Origin: Candidatus Bathyarchaeota archaeon | GTDB taxonomy: Archaea; Thermoproteota; Bathyarchaeia; Bathyarchaeales; Bathycorpusculaceae | Assembly (NCBI GenBank): GCA_963739305.1 | Contig: CAVTZU010000020.1 | Span: 1 to 64,000 of the forward strand | Reading direction: 5' to 3' | DNA length: 64,000 bases | Shown: piece after piece, positions 1 to 62,648 of the stretch | Position numbering within the stretch: position 1 is the first letter of the stretch | Layout of the letters: every line of letters starts with the position of its first letter | Made by a program: the position numbers and the translations under genes | Notes under the pieces: model-generated | The model's database searches: none | Seen by the model: only the letters and a program-made list of their open reading frames with translations | Told to the model about the DNA's origin: nothing

Positions 1-48
1 TAGCTCCAGATCGATAGCGCGCCTTTTGTTATCCTGCCTTTTTTTGGT

Positions 49-126
49 GTTTGTCGTTAGCTTCAGAAATAGGAACATTAGATCTATTAGTGGTACTGAA
101 AAAGCATAAAGTCAAGGTGTGAGCGC
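49..126 (+). repeat. Degenerate ~78 bp intergenic repeat, family A copy 1
   Basis: Hand alignment to 2053-2129 gives about 59/78 identities with one gap; ends in GAGCGC next to the stop codon of the DUF1801 gene. Confidence 0.85.
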
Positions 127-495
127 TTATTTCTTCTTACCCAAGTTTTCCTTAGCTCTGTATCTTACAATTTTCTTTACCAAATCCAATGGGATAGGTT
201 TGTTTAGGGGAAATCTGATAGTGCCTTTGCCTACCTCATGGCCAGACAATTCCTCTTTGAATGCCTCAATAGCTGAGATCTTGGGATAAAACCCAACATG
301 ATTTTTGAAGGCTGCAAACCATACTAAGATGCCATTCAGTTTGAAAGCAGGCATTTGATAACTAATTAGTTCTTCAGCTTCAGGTGCAGATTCCTTGATC
401 GCTTGTCTCAGTTCTTCTAAAATACTTTGGACATTTTCGGGAAATATGGCAATATACTCATCTATTGTTTTGAATACTTTCCTAGGTGTTGCCAT
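127..495 (-). CDS. DUF1801 (YdhG-like) domain protein
   Basis: TIDEYIA..., ISYQMPAF, FAAFKNHVGFYP, KGTIRFP motifs; ATG at 495 preferred over the longer ORF. Confidence 0.85.
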   Translation of the reverse strand: MATPRKVFKTIDEYIAIFPENVQSILEELRQAIKESAPEAEELISYQMPAFKLNGILVWFAAFKNHVGFYPKISAIEAFKEELSGHEVGKGTIRFPLNKPIPLDLVKKIVRYRAKENLGKKK

Positions 496-614
496 AGTGC
501 TTCCCCGCAATTCGTATTTCCTGGGCAAAAAGGCTCAGAACCTAATAAGCGCTCCGCTTTGATGACTCAAATCACGCGTTTCCTTTTTCAGGGTATTGTT
601 TGCAGGATTGCCAT

Positions 615-674
615 CAGAATAGGGCATTAGAATTATTGTTCTACGTGAAAGAATGTACAGTTAAAACGCGCGCG
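615..674 (+). repeat. Family A repeat copy 2 (more diverged), ending in CGCGCGCG
   Basis: CAGAATAGGGCATTAGAATTATTG...TGAAAGAATGTACAGTTAAAACGCGCGCG aligns with 64-126. Confidence 0.6.
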
Positions 675-726
675 GGTCACAAGTTTATTAATATCAAATG
701 TCATCTCAAAAACTAAGGTGAACAAT

Positions 727-1173
727 ATGGGTGTAAAGGAAAACCTCCAGTTGATGAAAACACTTGATGACGCATGGAATGCCGGACCTAGGAGTCCGCT
801 TTGGGAGACGTTTAAGAAACGTCATAGAGAAGACGTCAAAGTTTACTGGCCCGCTCAACCTCTTCCTACAGTAGGACGACACAGCCACGACGTCGAGGCT
901 ACAGAGTTCTTCAAAACTTTCGACAACAAACTAGTCAACAACCCCTACAAGATCGCCTTCGGTGATGAAGACCACACATGTACCGTTGCTGATTGGACAG
1001 TGACTATGAAAGGACCCATGAAAGGCGCAGATGGAAAGATTATCCAACCCACTGGAAAAACGGCGAAGCTTGAATTCTGCACAGTCGCCACATGGAAAAA
1101 CGGCGAAATCGTCGAAGAAAGGCTATTTTATGATGTTGTCGGGTTTATGAAGCAACTTGGGCTATCCAAATAG
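727..1173 (+). CDS. Ester cyclase / SnoaL-like (NTF2-fold) protein
   Basis: PTGKT...FCTVATWKNGEIVEERLFYD is typical of the SnoaL-like family; TATA-like TTTATTAA at about 684. Confidence 0.8.
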   Translation: MGVKENLQLMKTLDDAWNAGPRSPLWETFKKRHREDVKVYWPAQPLPTVGRHSHDVEATEFFKTFDNKLVNNPYKIAFGDEDHTCTVADWTVTMKGPMKGADGKIIQPTGKTAKLEFCTVATWKNGEIVEERLFYDVVGFMKQLGLSK

Positions 1174-1197
1174 GTCAACCAACTCGCGCGCTTGAAG

Positions 1198-1935
1198 TCA
1201 GCTATGTTCAGGTAAAGACTCATGAGCAAAGCTGCGCGCGCGCTTGCAGTGTTTTGCGCGCTTGTCATATTCTTTGCTGAGCTTTTCGACAGGAAACGAG
1301 CTTCCATGTGAGGGAAGAATCGTCCTGCAACCGAAGTCAATGATTTTCTTCCAGCTTTTCAGCACTTGTTCTGGTTCCTCAGCGTATGGAAACATTGATT
1401 GGAATGGAAAGGAGCTGGCCAAGTCTCCTATGAATGCTTCACCACTTCGTAAAAGAACTGAAACTGAACCTTTGGTGTGACCAGGAGTAAAAAGGACTAC
1501 CCCATCGAACCCAAAATCATCTAGAAGAAGCTCTTTGGAAATCAGAATTTCGGGTTCAACAGGAGTAAAGCTGCGGTCGATTGAGCTGAGCTTGCGACTT
1601 ACGGAAGAAAATATCCTTCTGACAGAGTTTGTTGGTGGCGGCACAGCAATTTGCGCTTCCTTCAAGAGTGCAGCTTCGTTGATGTGGACTGCCACGGGGC
1701 ACTGACAGCTTTTCTTTATTAGAGCAAGTCCGCCGACGTGATCATAGTGAACATGGGTGATAATAATCAATTTGATTTCGCTGGGAGAAATACCTAACTT
1801 GCGCAGGCAATCGAAGAACATTTGCTCCTTGCCCTTACACCCAGCATCTACCAAAATACAACCTTTTTGACCTTTCAACAAATACGCTGTAGCGAGGCCC
1901 ATATGGATTCCGTAGTGTTCAGTCAAAGGAACCAC
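1198..1935 (-). CDS. MBL-fold metallo-hydrolase
   Basis: THVHYDHVGG, TPGHTKGS, FIGD and PSHG motifs. Confidence 0.9.
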   Translation of the reverse strand: MVPLTEHYGIHMGLATAYLLKGQKGCILVDAGCKGKEQMFFDCLRKLGISPSEIKLIIITHVHYDHVGGLALIKKSCQCPVAVHINEAALLKEAQIAVPPPTNSVRRIFSSVSRKLSSIDRSFTPVEPEILISKELLLDDFGFDGVVLFTPGHTKGSVSVLLRSGEAFIGDLASSFPFQSMFPYAEEPEQVLKSWKKIIDFGCRTILPSHGSSFPVEKLSKEYDKRAKHCKRARSFAHESLPEHS

Positions 1936-2228: not shown

Positions 2229-2438
2229 TTATTTTCGCTTTCTGAATAACATTATTTCATCATGATTGCAGATGTATTCAAAACGTGCGATCTTCAAACC
2301 CAGCCTCGACAAACTTTTGGGCCTCGCTCATTGCACTGACTATTGCCGAATGATACTCGTCTGTCTCAAACTCTACAAGTTGCGTATAGATCAATGTGTT
2401 ACCGATATTCTTGTGCCCCAACAATCTCATGCGCGCGC
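2229..2438 (-). pseudogene. Tyrosine recombinase/integrase C-terminal remnant
   Basis: RLLGHKNIGNTLIYT (catalytic H and Y box), then DEYHSA...EAGFE/YICNHDEIMLFRKRK*; 5' end truncated at GCGCGCGC 2431-2438; a 16-nt insertion near 2277-2298 shifts the frame. Confidence 0.85.
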
Positions 2439-3789: not shown

Positions 3790-4269
3790 TCATATTGGGA
3801 TGGTTAGGCTTGCAAACATTATGAGCCCCAAGAAGATTTCGTAACAGAGCAGGAAGACTCCAACAGCCATGGGATGTTTGTTGATGTCGTCTAGTTCAAT
3901 GCCGAATAGCCTGAGTTTGGTAAAGACTAGGCAGAACAAACCGCCGAAGAACAGACTCACGAAGAAGCTGAGGACAACAACGAGAAGCCTCTGCAGGTTG
4001 AAGTAGGCGCCAACACTCACTGACTGCGAAAGGAAGAAGGGGTTAACCATCGAACCGTAAACAACCAAGCCAGCATAAACAAAAAAACCGCCCACAAAAA
4101 GGCTAGTTGCCAGAGAATTACCCTTGATGCTTTCGAACTCTTTAATCTTCGGCGTCAAAAGCGTGATGCTCCTAATTCCAATGTACCCAATCAGCAAACA
4201 AATCAGGCTTGAAACGAAAGCACGGACAAACCACAAGATCAATGATAATAGGAACTCTGAACCAGCCAA
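3790..4269 (-). CDS. DUF350-like 4-TM membrane protein
   Basis: Duplicated TM-(E..IK.N.A.)-TM pattern. Confidence 0.6.
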   Translation of the reverse strand: MAGSEFLLSLILWFVRAFVSSLICLLIGYIGIRSITLLTPKIKEFESIKGNSLATSLFVGGFFVYAGLVVYGSMVNPFFLSQSVSVGAYFNLQRLLVVVLSFFVSLFFGGLFCLVFTKLRLFGIELDDINKHPMAVGVFLLCYEIFLGLIMFASLTIPI

Positions 4270-4340
4270 CTCTATCTCCCAATCAAAGGATACTGTGGAG
4301 CAGCAAATATAACTCTTTCAAAGCGGGCGAGTCTTAGCGC

Positions 4341-4397
4341 GCGCGGAAGATATCTCCAATCAATGCCTTAAATGGAAATTTGCACTTTGATTTGCGG
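4341..4397 (+). repeat. 57 bp repeat family B copy 2
   Basis: 43/57 identity to 2162-2218; starts within the GCGCGCGCG run at 4337-4345; 7 bp beyond the peroxiredoxin stop. Confidence 0.85.
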
Positions 4398-4404: not shown

Positions 4405-4885
4405 TCAGGTCATTTGTTCGAGAAATTTCGCGATCTCGGTGTAGCTGGGTTCCACTCTTGGATCTTCCGAAATCCATGCATACCTTACCATGCCTTGCTT
4501 GTCCAGGATGAAGATTGAGCGTTTCGCGGCTGTGTAGCCTGGTAGTCCTCCGAAGTTTTGTAATTCTATGCCGTAGAGTTTTGTGACTTCGCGGTTGTAA
4601 TCGCACAGGAGAGGAAAGTTCAGCATGTTTTTCTCAGCGAATGCTTTGCTTGACCAGGGGTCGTTGACACTAACTCCAACGACTTTAGCTTTGAGAGCGC
4701 CGAGGTTTGCAAGCGAGTCCCTGAACGTGCACATCTCTTTTGTGCAAACGGAGGTGAACGCGCCTGGGAAGAATGCGAGCACGAGGTTGTCGCCTTGGAA
4801 GTCTCTGAGGCTTCTTGATTTGAACTCGTTGTCAACAAGTTTGAAATCTGGGGCTTTCTGCCCAACCTGTACAGTTGGATGTCAT
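4405..4885 (-). CDS. Peroxiredoxin (AhpC/TSA, BCP-like); apparent frameshift just after ATG
   Basis: VQVGQKAPDFKL...FFPGAFTSVCTKEMC; the ATG at 4885 is one base out of frame with the body. Confidence 0.85.
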
Positions 4886-6674: not shown

Positions 6675-7002
6675 ATGAAAAACACCGCTTTATGAGTGAT
6701 TCGGGGTTGGTTCTTAATAGAATTTACTTAGTTCAGTGCCCTGTTGGATTACGATTACACATGATTAAAATTATCGTAAACGAACTGCCCACTGGCGCGC
6801 GCTAAGGTGGCGTACCGCATTTCTTTTGGCAATCTGCACCTGTTTTCAATGCTTTGAGTCGGGCACCTTGAGCTTTTGTCCACGAAGTCTTACAAAAGAG
6901 CGCGCATCGGAAGCGTTACGAATGTACAGCTGGGCTATTGATTCTTGATTCATAATTCTTTAGAATGTAAAGCTCGAAACATGAGGAATTGGTTGAATAA
7001 AG

Positions 7003-7263: not shown

Positions 7264-7295
7264 AAGAAAGCCCCTTAGCGCGCGTGCAGGCAACG

Positions 7296-26711: not shown

Positions 26712-26791
26712 TGGCGACGTTTCTGTCGAAAAGCATCAATATGTTTTTGCATTCATGTTGAAAAGAGTACGCGCGCGTCCTTTGAATTGCG

Positions 26792-39445: not shown

Positions 39446-39660
39446 AAAAGGCTGTGAAAATACAGACTGGACTAGTATGTTCCAACGGGCGCTAGAATGT
39501 TTTGTTAGATTCTGGGAATTGACTTGAATTTAGACGCGCGCGCTATTTAGACTCCGCAACAAACATCTCTTCCCCGCCCATTTCGCCGTTATAGATTAAT
39601 ACACCTTCACGACTTCTCTCAAACTCTCGACACCTAATGAACATTGGAGGCTGATCTCAA

Positions 39661-43578: not shown

Positions 43579-43607
43579 ATCAAGCTCACGACGTACACTA
43601 AGGCAAA

Positions 43608-43916
43608 GTGAGTGCGAAAACTGTTAGGAAATTGAAGAAGATTGAGAGGTCTGCGGGGTTCGTGAAAGGTGGGGTGATCATGTCCAAGAGTGGCTTTACA
43701 AAGGATGCGGAGCGAGAAGCCAAGAGACACGGCATCAAGACGCTCAAATATAAACAGAAGAGAACAATTGATGAATGTTTCTTTCTAGGCGATTATGAAT
43801 GCCTGCACCAAGAGGGAAGAGGGGAGAAAGAACGGCAGAGAAACAAAGGCGGGTCATGGAGAAGAAAACCTTCTGACGCTGACAAGAAGAGAAAGAAGAA
43901 CAACGATTGGTGGTAA
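43608..43916 (+). pseudogene. Possible Mrr-like restriction endonuclease C-terminal fragment
   Basis: VSAKTVRKL...GVIMSKSGFTKDAEREAKRHGIKTL; no N-terminal catalytic part visible. Confidence 0.5.
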
Positions 43917-44053
43917 TCGTGCGCGCCAGGAGAGCCAGGACTTATTATTCGACAACGCCCGGTTTGACGGGAATACGTAATGGAGGAGTGGAGATTTAGG
44001 TGCACGCTTTGCCTTCCGAGTTCTTCTCAATAATGAACAAGCTACGATGTACA

Positions 44054-45109
44054 TTATTCTTTATCGTCGTGTTTTGCTGGCAGTGATTCAAGTCTTTTCT
44101 TGAAGGATGCTGCAGATTGGTCATCGGCGAGTATGTATAGAAAATCTCCTTTTTGCAGTTCAAAGTTGTCGGTCATATTGTGAATTATCTCGCCATTTCG
44201 GTAGACCAACAGTACTGGATCGCCTCTATCTATGTCTCCATACTTTATTCCTTGAGAAGTGATTTCGAATCCAACGACGTATTTGGATTTGAGCTTTTCA
44301 GATAATACTATGCCGGCCACTTCATTAGAAATTACCGAAGATGCTAGCATTTTTCCTATTAAGTCGTAGATGGGTGCAACCTTGTCTGCTCCTGCAGCCT
44401 TAGCACTTTCTACTAGCTCCTTATCATTTATGATGGAGACAGCATGGATGTTTTTGTTGAGCTTCTTGGCGCTCAAAACGGCAAGCATATTATCTCCGTC
44501 GTCATCAAAGGTGGATATTAGGTAGCGAGCTTTCTCCACCCCAGCCTTCTTAAGAGTCTCATAAATGTGTGTAGTCGGTCCCCCCACAGCCGCTATTCCA
44601 TCCTTTCTAAGCATTTCAAGTTGATCGTTATCCTTTGCTATGACAACGAACTCCAAGCCTAGCGACTTCAGACTATCGACAACGTACTTGCCTAGGAATT
44701 TGTAACCTACAACTATCACGTGATTCTTCATTCTGCTTACCCTCCTTGTTGTTATTTTCTCAGCTCGCAGCTCGCTCTTCAGAGCAACCGTAAATGTCCC
44801 TTGGACAAGGGAAGCTGCTGACCCAACGCTAAGTATGAAAACTACTATTAGAAGAGCCTTTTCAGAAGCTGGCATAGTGAGAATGCCAGGATTGTAGATC
44901 CCTATAGTCGTGATCGTTGAAACAGCTCCGAGAAGAGCGGTCAACGGGTCCAGCCCCTGATAATATATGAAAATCAAAGCTCCGAAAACAAACATCGAGC
45001 CCAATATTGAAAGTTGAATCCAAACAGATTTGACAATATAAAACGGTGTGTATGCCATAAGATCTAGCAAATCTCTTAGTTTTCTCACGGCAACTTCTCT
45101 GCAAGGCAT
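44054..45109 (-). CDS. Potassium-channel-like protein with RCK/TrkA-N domain
   Basis: 2 TMs around STITTIGIY, then NHVIVVGY Rossmann RCK. Confidence 0.85.
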   Translation of the reverse strand: MPCREVAVRKLRDLLDLMAYTPFYIVKSVWIQLSILGSMFVFGALIFIYYQGLDPLTALLGAVSTITTIGIYNPGILTMPASEKALLIVVFILSVGSAASLVQGTFTVALKSELRAEKITTRRVSRMKNHVIVVGYKFLGKYVVDSLKSLGLEFVVIAKDNDQLEMLRKDGIAAVGGPTTHIYETLKKAGVEKARYLISTFDDDGDNMLAVLSAKKLNKNIHAVSIINDKELVESAKAAGADKVAPIYDLIGKMLASSVISNEVAGIVLSEKLKSKYVVGFEITSQGIKYGDIDRGDPVLLVYRNGEIIHNMTDNFELQKGDFLYILADDQSAASFKKRLESLPAKHDDKE

Positions 45110-45224
45110 GTTATTTAGTTCTAGTAGACGGCTCAGAAACGATTAGGTTGCTCCATCCATAAGTGGATTGCGTTTGGCACGTAGTATTGCTAGAAATTCT
45201 CCTTGAAGCGCGCACTCTTTCTGT

Positions 45225-47036
45225 TCAGGAGTGTGGTTCGCTAATTTCTTTGACGCTTCCTGAAAGTTTAACCTCTTCAAGTCTTGACCTGATCTCTATG
45301 TTGTAAATTCGCCCGACGTCTTCTCGTGTGATTATGCCAATCAGCTTCATGCTGCCCCTTTGCTCAATAACTGGCAGACGTCCGATCTGATTACTAGTCA
45401 TCTTGTCAAAAGCCGTGTAAAGACTCTCATCAGGAAACGCCGTGACAAGCTCTTTCGTCATTACGGAGCTTACCATAGTCGTTGCTCTCTGGTCTGGATG
45501 AATCTGAAGAATATCCGTAAGCGTAACCATACCCACAAGTCTGCCGTTATCATCCAAGACTGGCACACCTTTTATTCCGTTCTTTGCCATTATCTCAGCG
45601 ACCTCTGAAAGCAGTGAGTTGGGGGTGGTTGTGATGACCTTTTTGGTCATTGCGTCTTTGACGAAGAGCTTCTGCATTAGGGGGATGGAGTATTCACCCT
45701 GGTGGGCTGGCGACTCGGCCCTTGATTGAACCTGGCTTCTATAGATCGTGTTCCTTCCTGTGATTACGTAGGCAATGGCGGTGGCTATCATTGAGGGAAC
45801 CAACAGAGTTAATCCTCCGGTCATTTCGCTAACCATGAGTATGACGGCAACAGGCACCTTGCCCACGCCTCCGAAAAATGACATCATCCCCACTATCACG
45901 AATGCGGCCAGGCTCGGACCGAAATTTGGCAAAACTCCGTCGAGGAACATCCAGAGGACTGTTCCCAGCAAGCCGCCTATCACCAAAGCTGGTGCGAAGA
46001 CTCCTCCGCTTCCTCCTGAGCCTATTGAAAGAGACGTGGCAACTATTTTGGCTACGATAATAATTGGAATCAAGGTGAGCGGGAGCAAGGCAAAGTTGCC
46101 GTTCATTGCTATCTGCAGCCAACCGTAGCCCATACCGAGCACCTGCGGGAGAAACATTCCAATAACACCCACTAAAAATCCTCCTAGAGCCGGCTTCAAG
46201 AAGCTCGGTATCCCTAGACGCTGAAAAAGGGTCCGTGTGCCGTAGAACCCTCTGACGTACACGATGCCAACTAAACCGCAGATTATGCCCAAGACAGCGT
46301 ATAGTGGCAGATCAAGCGGGTCGCTGAAGGCACGTAGATTCATGTAGCCAAATATGGGCGTCCATCCAGCAAATGATGCGAATATACTGTATCCCACGGT
46401 CGAAGCTATGAAAGCTGGCAGCAATGTCTCCACCTCAAAGTCTCCCATGTAAAGAATCTCAGCGCTCATTAGGGCCCCTCCAAACGGCGCCTTGAAGATG
46501 GAGCCTATCCCTGAACCTATGCCGACTGCAACTGCGATTCTTCTGTCGTGTAAGCTAAGATGAAGTCTCCTGCTCAGGAAGGAACCGAAGCCTGCCCCTA
46601 TCTGCGCTGTCGGACCTTCCCTGCCTGCACTTCCGCCAGACCCGATCGTTAACGCCGAGGCCAGAAGCTTAACGAAAGGTATTCTGGATCGAATCTCACC
46701 CTTTTTATTGTGAAAAGCGTCTATTGCCGCGTCAGTTCCGTGGCCCTCGGCTTCTGGTGCAAAGCCGTAGACGAGTATACCACAGACGAGCCCTCCAAGA
46801 GTAGTTATCAACGGAATCAAGTAGAGACGGGGCGAGACTGATCCTAAGCTTCCGCCTTCTCCGACTGGCGAAGGAGGAAAAAACCCAGTAACGCCGCCGA
46901 GTAGGATCGTGCTTGTGAGGCTAATTGCTTCATAGAAAAGAATACTCCCTATTCCGCTGACCGCACCTATCAAAAGAGCGATCGGAACCCATTTTCTAAG
47001 ATAACCAAGCTCGTGAGAAGCTCTGGGGGACTTCAC
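45225..47036 (-). CDS. CLC chloride channel/antiporter with CBS pair
   Basis: GHGTD, GREGP, GGVFAP, C-terminal CBS domains. Confidence 0.93.
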   Translation of the reverse strand: MKSPRASHELGYLRKWVPIALLIGAVSGIGSILFYEAISLTSTILLGGVTGFFPPSPVGEGGSLGSVSPRLYLIPLITTLGGLVCGILVYGFAPEAEGHGTDAAIDAFHNKKGEIRSRIPFVKLLASALTIGSGGSAGREGPTAQIGAGFGSFLSRRLHLSLHDRRIAVAVGIGSGIGSIFKAPFGGALMSAEILYMGDFEVETLLPAFIASTVGYSIFASFAGWTPIFGYMNLRAFSDPLDLPLYAVLGIICGLVGIVYVRGFYGTRTLFQRLGIPSFLKPALGGFLVGVIGMFLPQVLGMGYGWLQIAMNGNFALLPLTLIPIIIVAKIVATSLSIGSGGSGGVFAPALVIGGLLGTVLWMFLDGVLPNFGPSLAAFVIVGMMSFFGGVGKVPVAVILMVSEMTGGLTLLVPSMIATAIAYVITGRNTIYRSQVQSRAESPAHQGEYSIPLMQKLFVKDAMTKKVITTTPNSLLSEVAEIMAKNGIKGVPVLDDNGRLVGMVTLTDILQIHPDQRATTMVSSVMTKELVTAFPDESLYTAFDKMTSNQIGRLPVIEQRGSMKLIGIITREDVGRIYNIEIRSRLEEVKLSGSVKEISEPHS

Positions 47037-47171
47037 TTGTTCTTATCCTTCTCGAATATCCACTGCACAGTGAGGTCGGATATAAACGGCACGCACGCGC
47101 GCTACGAAAATATCTAAGTGGTCTAAATACATGGATGAGATCGGTTATCCTTGCGCGCGCGTTTAACGCGT

Positions 47172-47360
47172 TTATTCATATCGAAGCAAGTAGAGAGGCT
47201 TTGCGGCTTCCTTCTTATTCGTTTCCAAATTGAGAATGCTATTGCGTCGGTTCTCGTCACGTGAGTTCAGTCTTGGCACGCGTGCTCTTTTCCCGTTTGT
47301 TCTTTCTTTTGTCGCGTTCGCTTCTTCCGATGGTCCAGTTCTGTTTTCATTCCAAACCAT
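47172..47360 (-). CDS. Small hypothetical protein
   Basis: AGGAGG RBS and TTTATA box upstream; flanked by CG-run sites. Confidence 0.5.
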   Translation of the reverse strand: MVWNENRTGPSEEANATKERTNGKRARVPRLNSRDENRRNSILNLETNKKEAAKPLYLLRYE

Positions 47361-47557
47361 CTGTACTGATCCTCCTGAGAACTCCGCACCCTTGACTGTA
47401 TAGCGTATTCGATATAAATATTTCTATTTGACTATGAAGGCTCTCAGCGCGCGCCTCTCGACCAGTCTTTTGAAAGAACCAATCTTCGCCCGCTCCGCAA
47501 AGTATTCAATAAGACATACAAATGCCTAGAACAAAACCAGTCTTTCATGCGCGCTTA

Positions 47558-48160
47558 TCAACGTTGACCGTGTTTCGGTTTCTTTGTCTTTGGAAAGTCT
47601 TGCTTTAGATATGGACAGGCTTTGTCTTCTAAACGATCATAGTATCCTACTTCCCAGTGAGCGGAACTGATCAAGCCATATTCGGTGCATCCGAGCATCC
47701 AAGATACTAGGTGAGCCATCTCAACTCTTTCAGCAGAATTGAAGTAGCCCTCTCTGATCATCTCAACTGCTATTCTGCTCAGTCTGCTGAGAAAGCGGCA
47801 GAGGGCAGTGAATTTTTCAGGACCAGACTCGGCGATTCTTTTGTCAGGCTGCCAAGCGACATATTTCGCAAGTGGATTTTCTGCAATTGGGTCAACAGCA
47901 AACCTGTCTTTGGACAACACGGTTCCGAGCTTGAAAGCGACCTTGCTCTTGACAACCCGCACGTGTTGGGATTCCAGCAGCATACGAATGCTCAACACGA
48001 CATCATCGTCTATTCTGTCTCTGATTAGGAAGTGCAGATCTCTTACACCCTCAACGTCTTTCACGAAATCGTATAAACCTAGGAGTATGTTTCCAGTCTT
48101 GTCTGCCTTGCACCGCAGAACAGCGACACTCCAATTATCAACCGACATTATATCACTCAC
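47558..48160 (-). CDS. Hypothetical protein
   Basis: 200 aa ORF with globular composition. Confidence 0.7.
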   Translation of the reverse strand: MSDIMSVDNWSVAVLRCKADKTGNILLGLYDFVKDVEGVRDLHFLIRDRIDDDVVLSIRMLLESQHVRVVKSKVAFKLGTVLSKDRFAVDPIAENPLAKYVAWQPDKRIAESGPEKFTALCRFLSRLSRIAVEMIREGYFNSAERVEMAHLVSWMLGCTEYGLISSAHWEVGYYDRLEDKACPYLKQDFPKTKKPKHGQR

Positions 48161-48208
48161 ACGAGTTTATCTTCCGGTTTTTTCACGTGTTACAAAGACG
48201 ACCGGTTC

Positions 48209-48295
48209 TTATGGTCCTTGTTTGGCTTTTCTTCTTTCTTTCTTGCGCGCTCTTTCCCTGCGCTTCTTCTTTTTATTCCTTTTCTTGAATGGCAT
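48209..48295 (-). CDS. 28-aa Lys/Arg-rich peptide
   Basis: MPFKKRNKKKKRRERARKKERRKAKQGP*; GTGAGG RBS upstream. Confidence 0.45.
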   Translation of the reverse strand: MPFKKRNKKKKRRERARKKERRKAKQGP

Positions 48296-48794
48296 TTTTC
48301 CTCACTCTATACAAGGCAGGACTACTAAAAAGGATTACGTATTGCCTATAACAATAGCCAATGACAAATATTAAAGCTCAACAAGACCCCGCTATGACCT
48401 CGTCCAAGGCGCTGAGCGCGCGCGAGTGTAACGGTGAAGATCGACGGATGAGGTTTGACGCGCGCGCTGACAGAGTAACTTTGACATCATTGCGACAGCC
48501 AACATCGTGCACTTCTGTCTTTGGTAGCCTGTTAAGTTCATTCATGGCAATGATGTCGGTAGCGCGCGTGTCAGTATAACTAATTTACTATTACTATCGC
48601 CAATACGACAAACTTATAAGCAATCTTGTGCATAATACGCGTTGGCGCGTTTTTGTTCAGCGCCAAGGGAAGGACTGTGACCCTTTCATACACTTTGCGT
48701 TTCCTCAGAAGAGCTAAAGTAGAGCGATATTGCTACATTCCTCCACCCTTTCCTTCCCTCCCATTGGCGCGAGCGAACACCATCAGCGTGGACA

Positions 48795-49076
48795 TCAAAA
48801 AGGCTGAATCTCTATGATGATTTTCTTCACTGCTAATTCACAGATCTTTCTAATTCCCCTCTTGCCACTTTCATAGCTGACTTTTATCAGGTTTGTTTCG
48901 TGTAGTCTACGAACTTGTTCGCTGACATATGGTTGGCTTAGCTCAAGTCGCTGGGCTATCGTCGAAATGTCCAGATGTTCTTTTGAGAGTAACTGCAATA
49001 CTCGCAGACTCGTCGAGTTTAACGCGTCAGCAACCTTTAGGGCAGCTTCACCCGAAACAACAATCTCCGCAGACAT
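48795..49076 (-). CDS. ArsR-like HTH regulator
   Basis: LDISTIAQRLELSQPYVSEQVRRL...GKRGIRKIC. Confidence 0.85.
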   Translation of the reverse strand: MSAEIVVSGEAALKVADALNSTSLRVLQLLSKEHLDISTIAQRLELSQPYVSEQVRRLHETNLIKVSYESGKRGIRKICELAVKKIIIEIQPF

Positions 49077-49429
49077 TACGAACAGCTCTGTTTACCGTAT
49101 GAACTTCTTCAGCGTTTATAATGCTTGTGGGGTTTCCGATTAATATAACTATGCAGATATGCTTATTGGAGACATTTAGGACTGTATTCAATATAGCAAA
49201 ATAAGAGTATTTATAAGCAATTGTTTATATTCATTTGAGTCGTGTTATAAGAACAATACGAAAACTGAGGAGATGCAGAAGCATGCCGAGCAAACAAAAA
49301 AAGAAGAAAGCACTTCCAAAAAAGTACACGAAAAACAAGAAGTAACTCAACGAACCCAGACGTAATAACGCGTTATGCATTCGGGTTGCGCGCGCTAATG
49401 GCAAACTTGCAGGAAGGATATGAAGAAAA

Positions 49430-50824
49430 GTGGCGTTAGACCTCGTTCTGAGAGCTATTGTGACCATTTGCATTTTGGTTTTCTCAGCGAAGGTTCTGGG
49501 CGAGGTTTTCGCAAAAACAAAAATCCCCTCAGTGCTGGGTGAACTTTTCGCGGGAATCCTTCTTGGGCCTTACGCCTTCGGTGCAGTCATAGCGATAGGC
49601 GGCTCACCTGTAATCGAGCTAAACGAGATTGTCCGAGCGTTTGGAGAAATAGGCGGTATACTCATATTGTTCGTCGCCGGTTTGGAGATGACTCTCACTG
49701 ACTTTAGACGTGTTGGCGCATCTGGGTTCACCATAGGAACAGCAGGTGTCGTTTTCCCCTTCATTATGGGCTATGTTTTCTCCCTGCTTTTGGGCTTTAG
49801 CATGGGTGCAAGTCTTGTGATTGCCGCGGCTTTGGTGGCCACGAGTATTTCCATAACTTCACTGGTGTTGCAGGAACTCAAGCAGTCGCGAACAGTGGAG
49901 TCTAAGACAATGGTGAGTGCCGCAGTGGTTGACGACGTGTTAGGACTAGCAATTCTAGGCGTCATAGTTTCTTTCATATCAACTTCCGCGCCAATAAACC
50001 CGATAAACGTAGTTATCGTGATATTGGAGTCTCTTGCTTTATGGTTTGCCTTGGTGGTTTCCGCTTCAGTCATTCTGCCACGACTAATTAACTTAGCTTC
50101 TCGGGGGAAATCAGAGGAGACAGTCGAAGCTGCAGCCACGGCCTCGTGCTTCGGAGCTGCTGCCCTAGCCGCCTACATTGGGCTGTCACCGATCGTTGGC
50201 GCTTTTGCTGCGGGGATGGCGGTGGCAAGTTCTAAGGCGATTGAGAGGATTCGCGAATATGCCAAGAAAATAAGCACAATATTCTCCCCTGTTTTTTTTG
50301 CGCTAGCGGGCGCAGCCTTCAATTACCGAAGCTTCATAACTTCCGATCTGTTCTTCTACGTTTTCTTCATAGGGCTCGTTGCTATCGCCATACTGAGCAA
50401 GCTAGTCGGATGCGGTCTTCCAGCTTTCTTCTTCCTCAAAGACAAAAACAAAGCGATCAAAGTCGGCATAGGCATGATTTCCCGAGGCGAAGTGGGACTG
50501 ATAATCGCAGGAATAGCCATCACCTCAGACGTTATAACCCAAGGCACCTACACCGCGATCATAGGCATGATTATGATAACCACCATTTTGACGCCAATAT
50601 GGTTGAAAAGAGCCTACGACAAGTCTTCGGTTGAGCGTGAAATGCATTCGTTACCAACTGACAATCTTACAGAAACTTCTAAGGCCTGGTGCGCACTACA
50701 CACGTATTCAAAGTGCACCAATTTGATTCTGTTTACAGCTCAAAAACCACTTTGTGTAGGCCTACGCCGCGATCATAACAGGCTTAACAAATTCAATCCC
50801 GCCAACGACGTGCCCGCCTTGTAA
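49430..50824 (+). CDS. Cation:proton antiporter (CPA2/NapA-like)
   Basis: LGELFAGILLGP, AAVVDD, MISRGEVGL; the C-terminal tail may be extended. Confidence 0.9.
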   Translation: MALDLVLRAIVTICILVFSAKVLGEVFAKTKIPSVLGELFAGILLGPYAFGAVIAIGGSPVIELNEIVRAFGEIGGILILFVAGLEMTLTDFRRVGASGFTIGTAGVVFPFIMGYVFSLLLGFSMGASLVIAAALVATSISITSLVLQELKQSRTVESKTMVSAAVVDDVLGLAILGVIVSFISTSAPINPINVVIVILESLALWFALVVSASVILPRLINLASRGKSEETVEAAATASCFGAAALAAYIGLSPIVGAFAAGMAVASSKAIERIREYAKKISTIFSPVFFALAGAAFNYRSFITSDLFFYVFFIGLVAIAILSKLVGCGLPAFFFLKDKNKAIKVGIGMISRGEVGLIIAGIAITSDVITQGTYTAIIGMIMITTILTPIWLKRAYDKSSVEREMHSLPTDNLTETSKAWCALHTYSKCTNLILFTAQKPLCVGLRRDHNRLNKFNPANDVPAL

Positions 50825-57461: not shown

Positions 57462-58058
57462 ACGCCTTTCACTGTGAAGTGAAGTGTTGTGCCTCTACAT
57501 TTTATAGCTTTTTGACGCTCTCGCTCTTTCGCTAACGAGGGTCGCGCTTTTCAATCGCGCGCTACGAAACGATTCCGTAGTGTCAAATGAATTCCGGTCG
57601 TGACTTTACCAGGAAGACCAGACTCAACGTGGAAAGGACAAGTGCAGCGCGGCGCGCGCTAAATCATGAACGGAATCCCTGTTGATAACTGGGGATTCCA
57701 GACGAAAAACAAGGCAGACCGTTAGCCAAAAGCACTTTTCTGCCACTTTTTTGTCAATGGAATTCAAAATTCGGAGAAAAATTTAAAAGCAAGTTATGTG
57801 CGCATTAGGAAGCTGAATGAGGGAAATGGTGGAAGTAATTTTAACTCCCTTCTCTCCTTTCTCCCCTCGAGAATAATCTACCATTCTCCCTCATTACCAA
57901 TTCTAGCCGCCAAGTGCACTTATAGCTTATGGAACAATGTTCTAGTCGCCGGAATAGTCACGTCGGAACATAACGCTCTGCGATTTCAGGAAAGAGTAAA
58001 TGCGGTTCACCAACAAATATGGAAGTCACAAACCGATATCGCTGGTTGTTGGTTGAAA

Positions 58059-58737: not shown

Positions 58738-60588
58738 TTGAAATTCAAACCAAAGACGAATGCAGTGGTTCTTCTAGTCATTCTTTGTTTGACGATTTCG
58801 ATAATTTCCTCCCCGAAGCGCGCGCGTGCTTCGCAAAGCACCCCCACGCTTGCCGATTACCTCAACTCTTGGATCAATAACACGACTTTTGACGACAGCC
58901 CCCTGGCGACGCAATGGGGAATGGTATTCGGCAACAAACAAATGTCAAGCTATGACATTGCTGCGCAAGATGCCGCTGATGCTCAGCGGTGGACGGACGT
59001 TTTTCTAATCAAACGGTCCGCTGAAATCTCTGGCTACGGTTCTCCAGTCTTAGACTCTGCGGTAATAACGGCACTCCAGAATTGCCCGAAGGCTGGTGCA
59101 TTACCTGTCACCTACGGAAACGGGTGGCTCGTGTACGATGGGTTCGCGCTGTGGGCTCCGAAATGGGCAGGAGAACTTGGAGTGGCAGGATGGAATGCCA
59201 CTGAAATGTTCAATCAACTCAAGTATTTCGTCGATCTGTACGGTGGAGGTTTCCTCGTTGCGTATGAGAACTATGCGATTTCCACCAATCAGGCAAACAC
59301 ACGCTACTATGACGAGCAAGCTGAAACTCTACGAGCTTTCGTTATACTTGCGAGGCAAGGCGTTCAAGGTGCGATGGCCTACGCTGACAAGATATGGAAC
59401 CACCTGAACTCCGATGGCTGGTGGACTGGACAATGGTACTGGTACCGTCCTAGCTTGCAAGAGTTTGAATGTGAAATGGGAGGGTTCGCAATGGTAATCT
59501 CTGACTATCTGGGCTACGTTCATCCCAACGTAATTAGCGATCTCGAGTCAAAGCTTCTGGCTCATGGTTGGGACAGCCCTTGCTGGCAGAACAACGGATC
59601 CAGGTACGTGATCAACCATGCAAATTTTCCGAACGGTGCAGTTGTTACGGCTGAAATGCGCCCCGGGGAGACTCTTGCTGTGTGGAGAGCCCTTCAGTCG
59701 GTTTATCCAAGCATGCCTGTAGAGGATCAAGAAACCATCACCAACATGCTTTCTGGTTCAGCATGGTACAACGCCATAACCAGTGGAGCTTATGACAATG
59801 GCACAGCGCGAAGAGTGACTGGAGCGGCCGTCATGTTTCTAATGGGCATTATACCAGAAACAGGAAGCCTCAACCTAGGATACCGTGAAGAAGGCTACGT
59901 TACCAACACCGAGATTATCAAAAGCAACAACCTTGCGTTTGACTACGATGGTCGACGGATTCGCATATCACTCTTTGCCGGAAGCCTAGGCTTCAATTTC
60001 GGAACCACCCCCGTTTCCTACAGTTTTAACGAAACAGGAATCTATGATGTGTACTTTTCAAGCGACTGGAACACAGTGAAGGAGGCCAATTACTTGGGCT
60101 TGGATAACGATACCATACTGACACCCCCCAAGGCGGTCTTCACCTACGAACCGCTCAACTTCTATGTCAACATGACGGTGACTTTCAACGCCACGTCGTC
60201 GAAGCCTGGCTGGAACGGCACGGCTCAGTCGCCGATTATAGACTATCGATGGGATTTTGGAGACGGAAACATTACTGAGGGAGATTATCCAACGATAACA
60301 CATGATTACACGACGCTCGGAAAGAAAATGGTAGGATTGACAGTGGCTGACGCCGCCGGATATACGGGTTACACTCAGCAAACAGTTGAAGCGCGCGCGA
60401 CCTACCTCATCGATTTGAACGGCGATGGCATTTTTGATATCTACGACGCCGTGTTGTTTGCAGGTGCATTCCACTCAGTCCTTGGCAGCTCAAACTGGAA
60501 TCCTAGGGCAGACTTAAACGGCGATGGCGCCGTCGACCTTTACGACGCTGTAATCTTGGCAAGCTACCTAAAAGGAAGCCACCCATAG
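58738..60588 (+). CDS. Secreted modular protein: signal peptide + unknown domain + PKD + dockerin-like
   Basis: YRWDFGDG (PKD); DLNGDGIFDIYD and ADLNGDGAVDLYD (dockerin-type repeats). Confidence 0.85.
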   Translation: MKFKPKTNAVVLLVILCLTISIISSPKRARASQSTPTLADYLNSWINNTTFDDSPLATQWGMVFGNKQMSSYDIAAQDAADAQRWTDVFLIKRSAEISGYGSPVLDSAVITALQNCPKAGALPVTYGNGWLVYDGFALWAPKWAGELGVAGWNATEMFNQLKYFVDLYGGGFLVAYENYAISTNQANTRYYDEQAETLRAFVILARQGVQGAMAYADKIWNHLNSDGWWTGQWYWYRPSLQEFECEMGGFAMVISDYLGYVHPNVISDLESKLLAHGWDSPCWQNNGSRYVINHANFPNGAVVTAEMRPGETLAVWRALQSVYPSMPVEDQETITNMLSGSAWYNAITSGAYDNGTARRVTGAAVMFLMGIIPETGSLNLGYREEGYVTNTEIIKSNNLAFDYDGRRIRISLFAGSLGFNFGTTPVSYSFNETGIYDVYFSSDWNTVKEANYLGLDNDTILTPPKAVFTYEPLNFYVNMTVTFNATSSKPGWNGTAQSPIIDYRWDFGDGNITEGDYPTITHDYTTLGKKMVGLTVADAAGYTGYTQQTVEARATYLIDLNGDGIFDIYDAVLFAGAFHSVLGSSNWNPRADLNGDGAVDLYDAVILASYLKGSHP

Positions 60589-60784
60589 TTTTTGAACTAG
60601 AGTCAATATGCTTGCCAAAATTCCCTTCATGGTGAAGGGAACTAATCAACAAGCTTGCGGCATTGCGGCGTCGTTGAGAACGCGCTACAAGAATGAAAAC
60701 ATTTGAATAAATCTCTTCCAAGCCTGCCAGTTCCTTGCCTATTTTTGATCTGAATTCCAGGTTCATAAACCTCATCAATGCAGG

Positions 60785-61123
60785 ATGAACAGAATCTCAA
60801 GATGTAACGAGTTGACTTGTTTGAGGCACTTAGCGTTCTATTACGCGGTTGGTTTCGTGATCTTGGGTTGTCTATTGCTGGTCGCGCTTTCTTCAACGCT
60901 CGTTGGAGTGGTGCTGGGTGGCTTTGACCCGTATGCTGTCACCAGCTTAGCTGCGGCGATGTTCTTGCCTTTCGTGATCGGGGCGCTTTCGTGGCGCGGC
61001 TGGAAAGAAGTGCAAAAGAGGCAGACGCAGGAATTAGCGCATAAACCTCTTGTTGGAGTAGAAGAACAGGAAACGATCGAACAGAATTCAGGCACTCGTC
61101 AAAATCGACCAGCCGAAGCGTAA
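60785..61123 (+). CDS. Small 2-TM hypothetical protein
   Basis: Two hydrophobic segments. Confidence 0.55.
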   Translation: MNRISRCNELTCLRHLAFYYAVGFVILGCLLLVALSSTLVGVVLGGFDPYAVTSLAAAMFLPFVIGALSWRGWKEVQKRQTQELAHKPLVGVEEQETIEQNSGTRQNRPAEA

Positions 61124-61254
61124 TAGTGCGCGCTAATACCACGCGGTTCATTCCGACGATAACGCTATTTGGCCAACGCGCGCTAGAAACGGGGCGTCCG
61201 CAACCTATTTAAGAATCATGGTTATCACCACGTCGATGGTTTGGTGCGCAAATT

Positions 61255-62614
61255 ATGAAAAGTGAGATACGATTGATTTTGGGTGTTGTTCTTCTCGCCG
61301 TTTTCATTTCAGCGCTTTGCACTCCGTTCGGCGCCGCCGCCGCGACAGGATGGAGCCAGACGTACGGTGGTTCCGGGGACGACGAGGCGTATTCTGTGGT
61401 TCAGACTGGCGACGGAGGCTACGCTTTAGCGGGGTACACGAACTCCAGCGGCGCAGGTAGCTACGATTTCTGGTTAATCAAGACCAACTCTTCGGGAGAC
61501 ATGCAGTGGAACCAGAACCTACGGAGGCTCAGGTGACGATGAAGCCTATTCAGTCGTCCAAAGCAACGACACGGGATACGCGATAGCTGGGAACACGAAT
61601 TCTTACGGTGCCGGTGAAACCGACGCTTGGCTGGTCAAAACAGACTCTTCTGGAAACATGCAGTGGAGCCAAACCTACGGGGGAAGAGCACAAGACGGAG
61701 TATACTCCGTAATCCAAACGAGCGACGGGGGCTACGCTTTAGCAGGGTACACTGATTCCTTCGGAGCAGGCGACTTCGACTTCTGGCTCGTCAAGACCAA
61801 CTCTTCTGGAAGCATGATGTGGAATCAGACTTACGGAGGCCAAGGGGATGATGAAGCTGGCTGTCTGATTCAAACAAGCGACGGAGGCTACGCGTTGGCG
61901 GGGTACACGAACTCTTTCGGCGCTGGCAGCTATGACTTCTGGTTAGTCAAGACAGACACTTCTGGAAACATGCAGTGGAACCAGACCTACGGCGGCTCAG
62001 GAGATGATGAAGCTAGCTGCGTGATTCAAACCAGCGACGGCTATGCTCTAGCCGGGTTCACCAACTCTACTGGAGCAGGCGACTACGATTTCTGGCTGGT
62101 CAGGACCAACTCCCTTGGAACATCGCAGTGGAGCCAAACCTACGGAGGAGGATACGACGAAATAGCAAATGCGCTAGTTCAAACTAGCGACGGAGGCTAC
62201 GCATTGGGAGGCTTGACAGGTTCCTACGGTGCCGGCGACGTCGATTATTGGCTCGTCAAGACCACATCTTCCGGAAGCATGCAGTGGAGCCAAACCTACG
62301 GAGGCTCAGATGACGATGAAGCGTATGCCCTGGTCCTGACAAGCGACGGAGGCTACGCGTTAGCCGGATTCACAGCTTCCTACGGCGCTGGCAGCTATGA
62401 CGCGTTTCTAGTTAAGACCGACTCCTCAGGAAACAGTGTGATGCCACCGTCATCACCATTCTCTATCTCATATTCCACGATATTGATGGTGTTGATTATA
62501 GTGATCATAATAATAGCGGTGGTAGTAGTCATAGTCCGCCGCAGGCGTCCCAGATCCGACACGAGCAGTGGTCAACAGTATCCACCTCCAAGTCCTGAAG
62601 TGAAACCGCCGTAA
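61255..62614 (+). CDS. Membrane-anchored surface protein with about 7 repeats of ~50 aa (beta-propeller-like), frameshift near 61516
   Basis: Repeats W.QTYGG..DD.A...QTSDGGYALAG.T.S.GAG..DFWLVKT; signal peptide; C-terminal TM + RRRR. Confidence 0.85.
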
Positions 62615-62648
62615 GAGCGCGCGCTTGACAACAGGTTCTCTAATAGCG

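Follow-up and report, generated by a model that had tools for sequence, protein, structure and literature searches.

Genes and CG runs in the window

This study analyzes the 64 kb at the start of contig C20 (the window) from a Candidatus Bathyarchaeota archaeon; the host assembly, G000, comprises 2.317 Mb on 36 contigs. The genes of the window are ordinary archaeal ones (transporters, an A-type ATP synthase operon, enzymes of the methylmalonyl-CoA pathway, small regulators), its gene annotation includes no recombinase, and Rfam returned no known RNA family at gathering score. Between the genes lie short tracts of alternating C and G, which are the subject of this study. We define a CG run as a maximal alternating-CG stretch, long if it has at least 8 nt and short if it has 6 or 7 nt. 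The window holds 35 CG runs of at least 6 nt, 16 of which have at least 8 nt. An earlier note on this DNA had listed the 16 long runs, all at exactly the starts found here, and 12 short runs, all present, but it lacked seven further ones (at 1256, 6404, 27788, 31389, 42598, 43921, and 48245); it proposed that the runs are crossover sites or scars of an integron-like recombinase that shuffles accessory genes. As that note had it, the runs are mostly intergenic: this holds for 13 of the 16 long runs, while three lie in called open reading frames (ORFs) (1234, 58818, and 60391). The 14-mer reported to be identical at 47096 and 57556 was confirmed from the flanks. The features are as follows.

667..674: 8-nt CG run; left border of a one-gene module, 43 nt upstream of SnoaL-like gene 718-1173
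1185..1191: 7-nt CG run; right border of the SnoaL-like module, between convergent 718-1173 (+) and 1198-1935 (-)
1234..1243: 10-nt CG run; in the last ~40 codons of metallo-beta-lactamase-fold ORF 1198-1935 (-), beyond the Pfam domain
2431..2438: 8-nt CG run; intergenic, ORF 2494-2904 starts 55 nt downstream
4337..4345: 9-nt CG run; intergenic, with 3790-4269 (-) and 4405-4782 (-) on either side
6795..6802: 8-nt CG run followed by TAA; intergenic, with a 6-nt CG run at 6900
7278..7284: 7-nt CG run; between convergent 7003-7263 (+) and 7296-7820 (-)
26770..26777: 8-nt CG run; intergenic, 14 nt from ORF 26792-27043 (-)
39535..39543: 9-nt CG run; separates a ZIP transporter gene from a carboxylase gene
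43605..50809: 7.2-kb island; TrkA-N, CLC channel, ArsR, Na/H exchanger, and other genes
44031..45215: TrkA-N gene block; 6-nt CG runs at 43921 and 45208
47096..47102: 7-nt CG run; shares its 14-mer with the CG run at 57556
47153..47161: 9-nt CG run; a 382-nt skip in a metagenome contig has its left end here
47447..47454: 8-nt CG run; intergenic
47549..47554: 6-nt CG run; 3 nt past the stop of gene 47558-48160 (-)
48416..48467: two 9-nt CG runs (48416-48424 and 48459-48467) around a 34-nt spacer
48562..48776: block opened by a 7-nt CG run (48562-48568); it starts with a CG run in genome G005 also
49388..49395: 8-nt CG run with TAA after it; the Na/H exchanger ORF begins 34 nt downstream
57556..57659: CG runs 57556-57562 and 57652-57659; upstream of the ATP synthase operon
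58818..58826: 9-nt CG run; close to the 5′ end of ORF 58738-60588, the longest, whose true start codon may be downstream of the run
60391..60399: 9-nt in-frame CG run; between the PKD and dockerin domains of ORF 58738-60588
61128..61183: 6-nt and 7-nt CG runs, each followed by TA; upstream of ORF 61255-61536
62617..62624: 8-nt CG run; between convergent 61658-62614 (+) and 62649-63395 (-)

The CG run is a highly iterated palindrome

The octamer GCGCGCGC has 15 matches in the window, compared to a mean of 0.86 in 100 dinucleotide-preserving shuffles, none of which reached 15; the earlier estimate that chance would supply about one run per 64 kb was right. G000 as a whole holds 351 CG runs of at least 8 nt (9.7 per 64 kb), and CG runs are present on 35 of its 36 contigs. 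Lengths of 6, 7, 8, 9, and 10 nt occur 398, 150, 202, 96, and 48 times, and lengths of 11 nt or more occur 5 times. GCGCGCGC alone makes up 174 of 347 G000 runs, i.e., half, and simple arithmetic on the counts of 8-, 9-, and 10-mers fits an 8-nt core GCGCGCGC with chance extension. Among octamers with at least 80 counts, GCGCGCGC ranks first in G000 (718 both-strand counts versus 50.8 expected under an order-3 model, or 14.1-fold); next in the ranking come its TA-flanked derivatives, and its one-off derivatives are ~3-fold overrepresented. The CpG dinucleotide occurs at expectation (0.998). Other dinucleotide-repeat octamers of G000 are not enriched (TA, 2.0-fold; CA, 1.2-fold; GA, 0.9-fold), and general microsatellite slippage was rejected as a source of the runs since only CG is enriched among dinucleotide repeats.

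Next to the C end of a CG run, the first flanking base is T in 69% of cases and the second is A in 47% (498 run ends genome-wide); from the third position on, there is no base preference. TA stands on both sides of 30 of 202 runs, compared to ~29 expected, so that the two flanks are independent. The oriented TA flank described in the earlier note is therefore real, but it is weak and the two sides do not act together. Complementarity between flanks at offsets 3 to 15 stays at background (0.23 to 0.30 in 248 runs), and the palindrome is not extended. CG runs are thus copies of a highly iterated, perfectly self-complementary palindrome with the core GCGCGCGC, sometimes 1 or 2 bases longer, and with weak T-then-A flanks.

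Position of CG runs relative to genes

Genes were called with our own codon-usage caller, which always takes the longest ORF and gave 2,276 genes and 81% coding sequence in G000. The long runs are intergenic in 280 of 351 cases, against 19% noncoding sequence; of the others, 12 extend across a gene end and 59 lie within ORFs. These 59 cluster at ORF ends (the first 20% of the ORF contains 29 and the last 10% contains 11), unlike 6-nt runs inside ORFs, which are evenly spread. The 29 runs in the first fifth of ORFs probably reflect overextended start calls, and because the in-ORF runs are mostly at ORF ends, the true number of coding runs is near that expected by chance.

Among the G000 spacers of at least 50 nt, 223 of 1,415 hold a CG run. 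In tandem spacers, 90 of 140 runs are nearer the upstream stop and 50 nearer the downstream start; for 36 of the 140 the stop is no more than 20 nt away, and only 8 come as close as 40 nt to the start. Eleven runs open with the G of a TAG stop codon. By spacer type, G000 has its highest run density between convergent genes (75 runs in 73 kb, versus 67 in 124 kb of divergent spacers). Distances from run to start codon are broadly distributed in G000, with no peak and no fixed spacing. Two regulatory readings were rejected on this evidence: an intrinsic terminator, because the frequency of T is only 0.23 to 0.31 from flank position 3 on, with no T-tract and no hairpin extension, and a core promoter element, because there is no fixed spacing to start codons.

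The avoidance of the 40 nt before starts and the accumulation after stops bear on a different explanation, in which the palindrome has another primary role, as a protein-binding element or a boundary separating transcription units, a methylation-linked palindrome like cyanobacterial HIP1, an uptake tag, or a Z-DNA former; in that case, relaxed constraint or hitchhiking would account for its link with flexible regions, and occasional microhomology recombination would be a by-product. Such a role is also favored by the HIP1-like standing of the core as the top octamer, a palindrome that is patchy among lineages and has dialects (see below), and by the weak sharing of run presence between conserved spacers that are orthologous (2 of 6 in G001; Fisher P = 0.02). 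Against it are the absence of a T-tract, of a hairpin extension, and of a fixed spacing to starts, as well as several of the findings below, and we consider it unlikely.

CG runs mark joints in the flexible genome

Gene order in G000 was compared by reciprocal best hits with that in 1.2 Mb of G001, a congener whose genome is complete in a single contig; the median ortholog identity was 74% in protein. The G001 spacers (of at least 50 nt) with a CG run, and the number of runs per kb, were as follows.

Conserved orthologous neighbors: 8 of 144 spacers, 0.30 per kb
Synteny break: 23 of 117 spacers, 0.81 per kb
Core next to accessory: 61 of 246 spacers, 0.88 per kb
Accessory next to accessory: 72 of 219 spacers, 1.33 per kb

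CG runs are therefore not equally common at conserved junctions (8 of 144 versus 156 of 582 other spacers; Fisher P = 3e-9, run-rate binomial P = 1e-5), as the earlier note had expected. The depletion at conserved junctions amounts to 3- to 4-fold per kb and so is not merely a matter of spacer length, which argues against a different primary role with the flexible regions as bystanders. The number of flanking spacers with a CG run per ortholog rises from 0.06 for orthologs syntenic on both sides to 0.26 for those syntenic on one side and 0.56 for isolated ones in G001; the corresponding values in G000 are 0.07, 0.20, and 0.41. In 10-kb bins, runs are clumped (dispersion, 2.7), and their density is inversely related to the fraction of orthologs (Spearman coefficient, -0.39; P = 1e-5), with 1.64 versus 0.50 runs per intergenic kb in the extreme classes.

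At 815 to 830 kb and 855 to 870 kb of G001, genes and CG runs alternate in arrays, with genes in both orientations, and the G000 orthologs of the array genes are scattered across many contigs. The cargo consists of toxin-antitoxin pairs, GNAT acetyltransferases, glycosyltransferases, small regulators, a PLD-type nuclease, and two tyrosine recombinases; there are gene fragments as well, namely, C-terminal pieces of Cas1 and eEF1A. The G001 ortholog of window gene 47558-48160 (-) is located in a CG-run-dense array, in another context. These data show that CG runs are concentrated in the flexible genome and mark joints between modules of one to a few genes, and they agree with the earlier statement that runs bracket accessory modules of one or two genes.

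Rearrangements between strains and species end at or near CG runs

Structural variants were sought in near-identical contig pairs of G000 (89 to 100%), which are strain variants or overlaps, and in Logan contigs (contigs, not raw reads) of four peat-metagenome runs of one study (X1 to X4). Homology blocks ended within 12 nt of a CG run of at least 6 nt in 23 of 122 cases (contig ends excluded), compared to 3.9% of intergenic positions (P = 3.5e-10), and 10 of 72 contig ends had a CG run within 60 nt, compared to a background of 2.1%.

Two contig pairs illustrate the pattern. C2 differs from C3 by a 4.2-kb two-gene insert with a TA-flanked CG run on either side, and the empty site in C3 has one TA-flanked run. 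The insert encodes two secreted dockerin-type proteins, both of which end in dockerin-like modules, and no recombinase; for the direction of this event, orthologs of the flanking genes were sought in 1.2 Mb of G001, and none was found. C13 and C17 carry different segments, of 2.0 kb and 2.9 kb, bracketed by CG runs in both alleles. The segments begin with a CG run 4 to 7 nt past a common stop codon and end with a CG run ~25 nt before homology resumes, with a few unrelated filler bases between the conserved sequence and the run.

Within the window, contigs from all four metagenome runs skip the 96 nt between the CG runs at 57556 and 57652 (joint 57564->57661). In X1 only, the CG runs at 48416 and 48459 enclose their 34-nt spacer in inverted form (joints 48415/48472 and 48424/48458, opposite strands). 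One metagenome contig has a 382-nt skip that begins in the run at 47153 (joint 47160->47543), and metagenome contigs diverge, as a loose end, at the run at 62617. In an X4 contig, the whole island 43605..50809 is replaced by 26 nt holding a CG run (joint 43604->50810), and similar joints occur in X1 and X3.

Comparison with other genomes gave related results. Blocks 48108-48375 and 48565-48776 are in swapped order in G005, and the latter starts with a CG run in both genomes. The TrkA-N block 44031..45215 is 93% identical to G005, compared to 76% in the neighboring blocks; a 6-nt CG run abuts the block edge in G005, and metagenome loose ends lie within the block at 44055 and 45187. The block that begins at 62645 is 92 to 96% identical in G001, G002, and G008, and a CG run of at least 6 nt lies within 25 nt of the edge of this block in 2 of 4 genomes. 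Most internal CG runs in 114 kb of aligned near-identical sequence are identical (52 of 64), and the others differ by point changes or indels of 1 to 2 nt. Deletions, an inversion, cassette replacements, and insertions between co-occurring strains or between species thus end in a CG run or no more than ~10 to 25 nt from one. Such coincidence of breakpoints with CG runs, seen in the 23 homology ends and the metagenome joints, had been anticipated in the earlier note, and the precision of several breakpoints would be hard to obtain by hitchhiking.

We also considered whether the runs are an artefact of long-read assembly, polishing, or binning. The window does contain 1-nt indel errors. The ATP synthase A and B genes (52338-57461, -) are each split into two overlapping ORFs, and contigs of all four metagenome runs are one base shorter at 53151 and at 54987, so that the splits are probably 1-nt insertion errors of the long-read assembly; a similar frameshift seems to affect the genes for AhpC (about 4405-4916) and ZnuA (about 24941-25709). 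The G000 assembly has 7.8% contamination and many contig pairs that are 95 to 99% identical (C2/C3/C6, C7/C31, C13/C17, C23/C35, C29/C35, and others), which indicates that the bin mixes closely related strains and that genome-wide counts are partly redundant. However, independent contigs of the four metagenome runs cover the CG run positions with few differences, and the motif and its flanks are shared by 10 of 10 same-genus genomes and by genomes of two other families from other assemblies. An artefact, which the earlier note had named as a possible outcome, is thus exceedingly improbable.

Three further observations concern individual loci. At the end of contig C10 (109989-117278), the final 7.3 kb matches itself in reverse complement at 95% identity, which may be an inverted duplication or a fold-back assembly artefact. 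The in-frame CG run at 60391 of the window stands exactly between PKD and dockerin domains and may reflect domain-level shuffling at a CG run; the dockerin-coding end of this ORF (60418-60560) has many matches in G002 and G008, at 72 to 77% nucleotide identity. ORFs 61255-61536 and 61658-62614 contain internal repeats, with many matches to a tandem-repeat region of G005. Several skips occur inside the 61255-62614 region in metagenome contigs, and a tyrosine recombinase gene adjoins the homologous gene in G002 (C13:7132-7590) and G008 (C4:108028-108489).

Tests of transposon, cassette, and integron structure

Inverted repeats beyond the CG runs are absent: 3 of 975 neighboring pairs reach 12/20 inner-flank complementarity (null, 0.23%), and direct repeats gave a like result. 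Transposon or miniature inverted-repeat transposable element (MITE) ends were therefore rejected; there are no inverted or direct repeats and no extra duplications beyond the runs, which accordingly are not the ends of classical transposons or MITEs.

The note's own explanation, taken strictly, would have a dedicated site-specific recombinase use CG runs as crossover cores to excise and integrate cassettes, in the manner of an integron with a minimal palindromic site of 8 to 10 bp. Several findings are in line with it: the array stretches with integron-like cargo (toxin-antitoxin pairs, GNAT acetyltransferases, and small unknown proteins), the one run at the empty C3 site and two at the filled C2 site, the deletion and inversion between pairs of runs, a patchy spread that suggests a transferable factor, and the many tyrosine recombinases (15 matches in G000, and the two in the G001 array). 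Other findings tell against it. The best match to the integron integrase model TIGR02249 in the whole of G000 scored 34.9 bits, compared to a cutoff of 265, and G000 has no serine recombinase. As judged from flank statistics, there is no attC-like site, i.e., no flank preference beyond 2 nt, no extended palindrome, and no folded structure around the runs. Core plus 2 nt is little for known tyrosine recombinase sites. Genes occur in both orientations in the G001 arrays, which departs from the co-orientation of integron cassettes, and the presence of Cas1 and eEF1A fragments in the arrays also speaks against this mechanism, as do the homology ends that in some cases are offset by 4 to 27 nt and the existence of donor copies without runs.

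Gene-to-run distances were compared for translocated orthologs with a CG run on the same side in both species (G000 and G001). The stop-to-run distance agreed within 15 nt in 3 of 15 cases (permutation P = 0.24) and the start-to-run distance in 0 of 17, so that cassette boundaries are not conserved. Sequence between gene and run was as alike as sequence beyond the run (0.52 versus 0.50), a comparison without power since spacers no longer align at ~73% protein identity and erosion of boundaries is expected. The tyrosine recombinase family is present everywhere, and of the 11 G000 genes under 12 listed matches, one has a CG run within 100 nt and none is bracketed on both sides. The integrase bordering CG-run arrays in G000 and G001 occurs in 4 of 16 motif-rich genomes and 61 of 251 overall, and its closest homologs are in motif-poor genomes. 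The integron-like part of the earlier proposal is thus in part contradicted, and exchange by a dedicated recombinase of this kind seems to us quite doubtful.

Phyletic distribution and search for a responsible factor

Among 31 relatives, the TA-flanked 10-mer occurs in all ten other genomes of the genus, in 13 to 210 copies (189 in G000), and in 0 to 3 copies in 20 genomes of 19 other genera. Among 251 Bathyarchaeia genomes, 16 have at least 40 copies; these motif-rich genomes belong to three families only, with 4 in the family of G000 (which is included), 7 in the second, and 5 in the third. Sister genera, and even congeners, of motif-rich genomes are at or near zero copies. The patchy spread suggests a factor that is transferable or repeatedly lost. 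In the first 400 kb of G107, a genome of another family with 39% GC, the octamer is 22.6-fold overrepresented, 72 of 84 CG runs are intergenic, and the flanks have T in 77% and A in 55% of cases; G107 has somewhat more 10-mers than G000 and an equal CG run density in all spacer types. One further family has the opposite flank and phase. In genus g57 of family f24 (e.g., G141, G225, and G159), the backwards control word (CG phase, AT flank) is 2 to 3 times more common than the TA-flanked GC-phase word, which may be a second "dialect" or a composition effect only. DNA of the window itself is shared across families only as conserved genes, at 67 to 72% identity, in the five motif-rich genomes of other genera or families that were compared.

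The occurrence of candidate protein families in motif-rich genomes and in all 251 genomes was as follows.

C5-methylase PF00145: 0 of 16 motif-rich, 25 of 251 overall
N4/N6-methylase PF01555: 7 of 16 motif-rich, 163 of 251 overall
Ku: 4 of 16 motif-rich, 61 of 251 overall
Serine recombinase: 2 of 16 motif-rich (none in G000), 29 of 251 overall
GyrA: 0 of 16 motif-rich (none in G000), 4 of 251 overall
Integrase bordering the CG-run array in G000 and G001: 4 of 16 motif-rich, 61 of 251 overall (best matches in motif-poor genomes)

The two methylase rows offer no support for a methylation-linked role. Long CG runs have the sequence required of a Z-DNA-forming tract (at least 8 nt of alternating CG), which typically lies upstream of promoters, yet GyrA was not found in the motif-rich genomes and convergent spacers are the densest in G000, which together would argue against Z-DNA driven by negative supercoiling.

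Cas1-type integration was rejected and is unlikely in G000, which among the 31 relatives searched holds Cas1 only as C-terminal fragments. In the genus, Cas1 occurs mostly as C-terminal fragments or stop-interrupted genes, several per genome (in G000, C18:9381-9596 and C18:15069-15263; in G001, 862528-862974 and others). One of the fragments is in a CG-run-dense array with a run directly after it. Near-full-length Cas1 within the genus is confined to G002 and G004, and there are other genera with full-length Cas1. A full-length Ku homolog is encoded at C32:50991-51527 of G000 (E = 5e-43), and Ku in the 61 of 251 genomes is clustered in few families; by sequence homology, this archaeon may have bacterial-type end joining. 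Viral carriers were likewise rejected: a 14-mer scan of IMG/VR gave 35 stretches, several with more than one octamer. Three that were profiled have 65 to 69% GC, and the two with ORFs listed have long overlapping ORFs on both strands, so that these matches are a composition effect.

A proposed model of DNA breakage and rejoining at CG runs

We propose that a CG run is a preferred place of DNA breakage and rejoining for gene modules, a reading to which we assign an even chance. Every CG run is complementary to every other in either orientation, so two broken or exposed runs could anneal and be sealed, which would produce a deletion, inversion, or translocation with one run left. Annealing of a palindrome in either orientation would account for the deletion of 96 nt, for the inverted spacer, and for the empty site with its one run. 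If a fragment were joined into a break staggered across a CG run, fill-in would leave it with a run on both sides, and this would explain inserts flanked by two runs even with a donor that has none (C17 versus C30, below). The whole would behave as a cassette system without cassette-borne sites of defined structure. The breaks might be made by a lineage-patchy nuclease, by an integrase-like enzyme, or by template switching in replication.

Several observations weigh against this reading. The strain variants amount to about ten independent events from one assembly and one metagenome study, and the gene calls behind the positional data are crude. At the 7.2-kb skip, the window has no CG run at either breakpoint, the run being in the deleted allele. 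In C17, a 380-nt one-gene module lies between two 9-nt CG runs, and its C30 paralog, beside an integrase gene, is without runs. These two variants are left unexplained by the simple site-by-site exchange of the earlier note; they fit a scar or target-duplication model better than run-by-run exchange. Several homology ends are 4 to 27 nt away from a CG run and not in it, and together with the 7.2-kb case these offsets of a few bases fit better with resection, or with runs laid down at the joints. The 114 kb of aligned near-identical sequence showed no CG run arising de novo. Synteny breaks and conserved junctions did not differ when only the first 400 kb of G001 was considered (0.56 versus 0.54 runs per kb), and the excess at synteny breaks emerged only with 1.2 Mb. 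Small differences in gene content between conserved anchors, which are probably mostly gene-calling noise, showed no CG run enrichment (6 of 156 junction spacers, 2 of 78 empty ones). At most 33% of accessory spacers hold a CG run, so the runs do not mark every flexible joint. Finally, no enzyme behind the breaks was identified among the families tested: C5-methylase, N4/N6-methylase, Ku, serine recombinase, GyrA, and the array-border integrase do not track the motif among the 251 genomes, nor does Cas1 among the 31 relatives. That none of the recombinase families tested tracks the motif also tells against the recombinase exchange proposed in the earlier note.

The same variants bring in the possibility that CG runs are scars, made at the joint when ends are sealed after a deletion or after capture of a fragment. 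Lineage-specific end processing would add or fill in alternating GC, its self-complementarity would keep the two ends together, and the runs would be a record of past events and not their cause. This would account for the 7.2-kb variant, with its run in the 26-nt filler, no run at the window breakpoints, and the last ~20 nt of the exchanger gene retained, for the run-flanked C17 module with a runless C30 paralog, and for the unrelated filler bases between conserved sequence and run in C13 versus C17. Run positions that vary around orthologous genes, a variable run length with a sharp upper limit, one-off derivatives that are overrepresented as decaying scars would be, and a Ku encoded by G000 are also as expected of scars. 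On the other side, the deletion and inversion took place between two preexisting runs and the C2/C3 empty site reuses the same flanks, so that existing CG runs do take part. Ku is present in only 4 of 16 motif-rich genomes, no newly made run was found among the 64 aligned internal runs, and we know of no enzyme that adds alternating GC. We regard an origin of the runs purely as scars as distinctly unlikely.

A more specific form of the proposal is conceivable, which we put forward tentatively and hold to be somewhat improbable: a horizontally spreading gene-shuffling system of Bathyarchaeia in which a nuclease or integrase-like enzyme would make staggered breaks across the 8- to 10-bp GC palindrome, any two cut sites, or any captured fragment, would be joined in either orientation to build up dispersed arrays of single-gene cassettes, and target duplication would multiply the palindrome. 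It would be a minimal-site counterpart of the integron.

Sediments, peat, and soils harbor abundant Bathyarchaeia, most of them uncultured, and the ways in which the genomes of these archaea exchange genes are poorly understood. The present data indicate that a single short word predicts where their genomes are fluid: CG runs are 3 to 4 times denser per kb at nonsyntenic joints, about nine times more frequent beside translocated genes, and found at strain-level breakpoints. They offer a concrete, testable handle on archaeal genome plasticity and account for the places at which these metagenome assemblies break. Because the spread over three families is patchy, phylogenetic profiling can be used to seek the responsible factor.

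Comparison with known systems

A literature search, conducted without subscription journals and supplements, found no paper on this motif in archaea, and we compared it with systems described elsewhere. Like a type II restriction site, the motif is a palindromic 8-bp word, but it is enriched and not avoided, and two methylase families do not track it. Like the DNA uptake sequences (DUS/USS) of Neisseria and Haemophilus, it is a short, lineage-specific, hugely overrepresented word that often stands between convergent genes. DNA uptake sequences, however, are nonpalindromic and common in core genes, whereas the present motif is depleted in the conserved core and at conserved junctions. Repetitive extragenic palindromes and the mosaic elements built from them (REP/BIME), as well as MITEs, resemble it in having hundreds of intergenic, lineage-specific copies, often just after stops or between convergent genes. 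Those elements are imperfect palindromes of 20 to 150 nt or have terminal inverted repeats with target duplications; the present motif has no conservation beyond 12 nt and no inverted or direct repeats beyond the run.

The likeness to integrons lies in arrays of short accessory genes with a recurrent palindrome, in the toxin-antitoxin and acetyltransferase cargo, and in filled and empty sites that differ by one module plus one element. Integrons are defined by IntI, which is a tyrosine recombinase with an extra domain specific to it, by attI, and by arrays of attC cassettes, and archaeal ones have been reported (PMC9668308). Their attC sites, as described there, are imperfect palindromes of ~60 to 140 nt with conserved R and L boxes that fold as single strands, and the cassettes, mostly co-oriented in one array beside intI/attI, each move together with their site, so that boundaries are precise and conserved; Bathyarchaeia do not occur in the main text of that report (PMC9668308). 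In G000, by contrast, there is no IntI, the element has 8 to 10 bp without an attC-like fold, genes are in both orientations, boundaries are not conserved, and the elements are dispersed over 35 of 36 contigs and not placed beside one integrase.

Microhomology-mediated end joining and template switching would also give deletions between direct copies, inversions between inverted copies, and capture of fragments, and bacteria and mammals are known to suffer breaks at (CG)n, one of the fragile alternating purine-pyrimidine tracts (PMC9276527). These processes use any chance microhomology; here, a single 8-mer is amplified to ~350 copies and shared by three families, a situation that calls for a source or for selection.

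Of the phenomena described so far, the nearest is cyanobacterial HIP1 (GCGATCGC), which was first noticed at deletion borders. Both are octameric, perfect palindromes that rank as the top octamer (here 14-fold, and 22.6-fold in G107), are patchy among lineages with dialects, and sometimes have short preferred extensions, without a settled function. HIP1 is described as 16- to 317-fold overrepresented, with lineage variants, short extensions, a tie to methylases, and an uncertain function (PMC4390886, PMC5861425). It has been discussed as a recombination or insertion site (PMC4390886, PMC5861425, bioRxiv 10.1101/2024.09.10.611283, PMC13756078), and recent work ties it to gene transfer (bioRxiv 10.1101/2024.09.10.611283, PMC13756078). 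The present motif differs in its sequence (HIP1 itself is at 0.86-fold in G000) and in its archaeal host. HIP1 is enriched and conserved in coding and noncoding DNA alike (PMC5861425), whereas ~80 to 90% of the copies of the present motif are intergenic and concentrated in flexible islands, their conservation at orthologous sites is weak (2 of 6 conserved spacers), and the two methylase families tested show no matching pattern (in motif-rich genomes, PF00145 0 of 16 and PF01555 7 of 16). The CG runs of Bathyarchaeia thus constitute a second, independent example of a highly iterated palindrome besides the thirty-year-old cyanobacterial puzzle, here with a clear link to structural variation.

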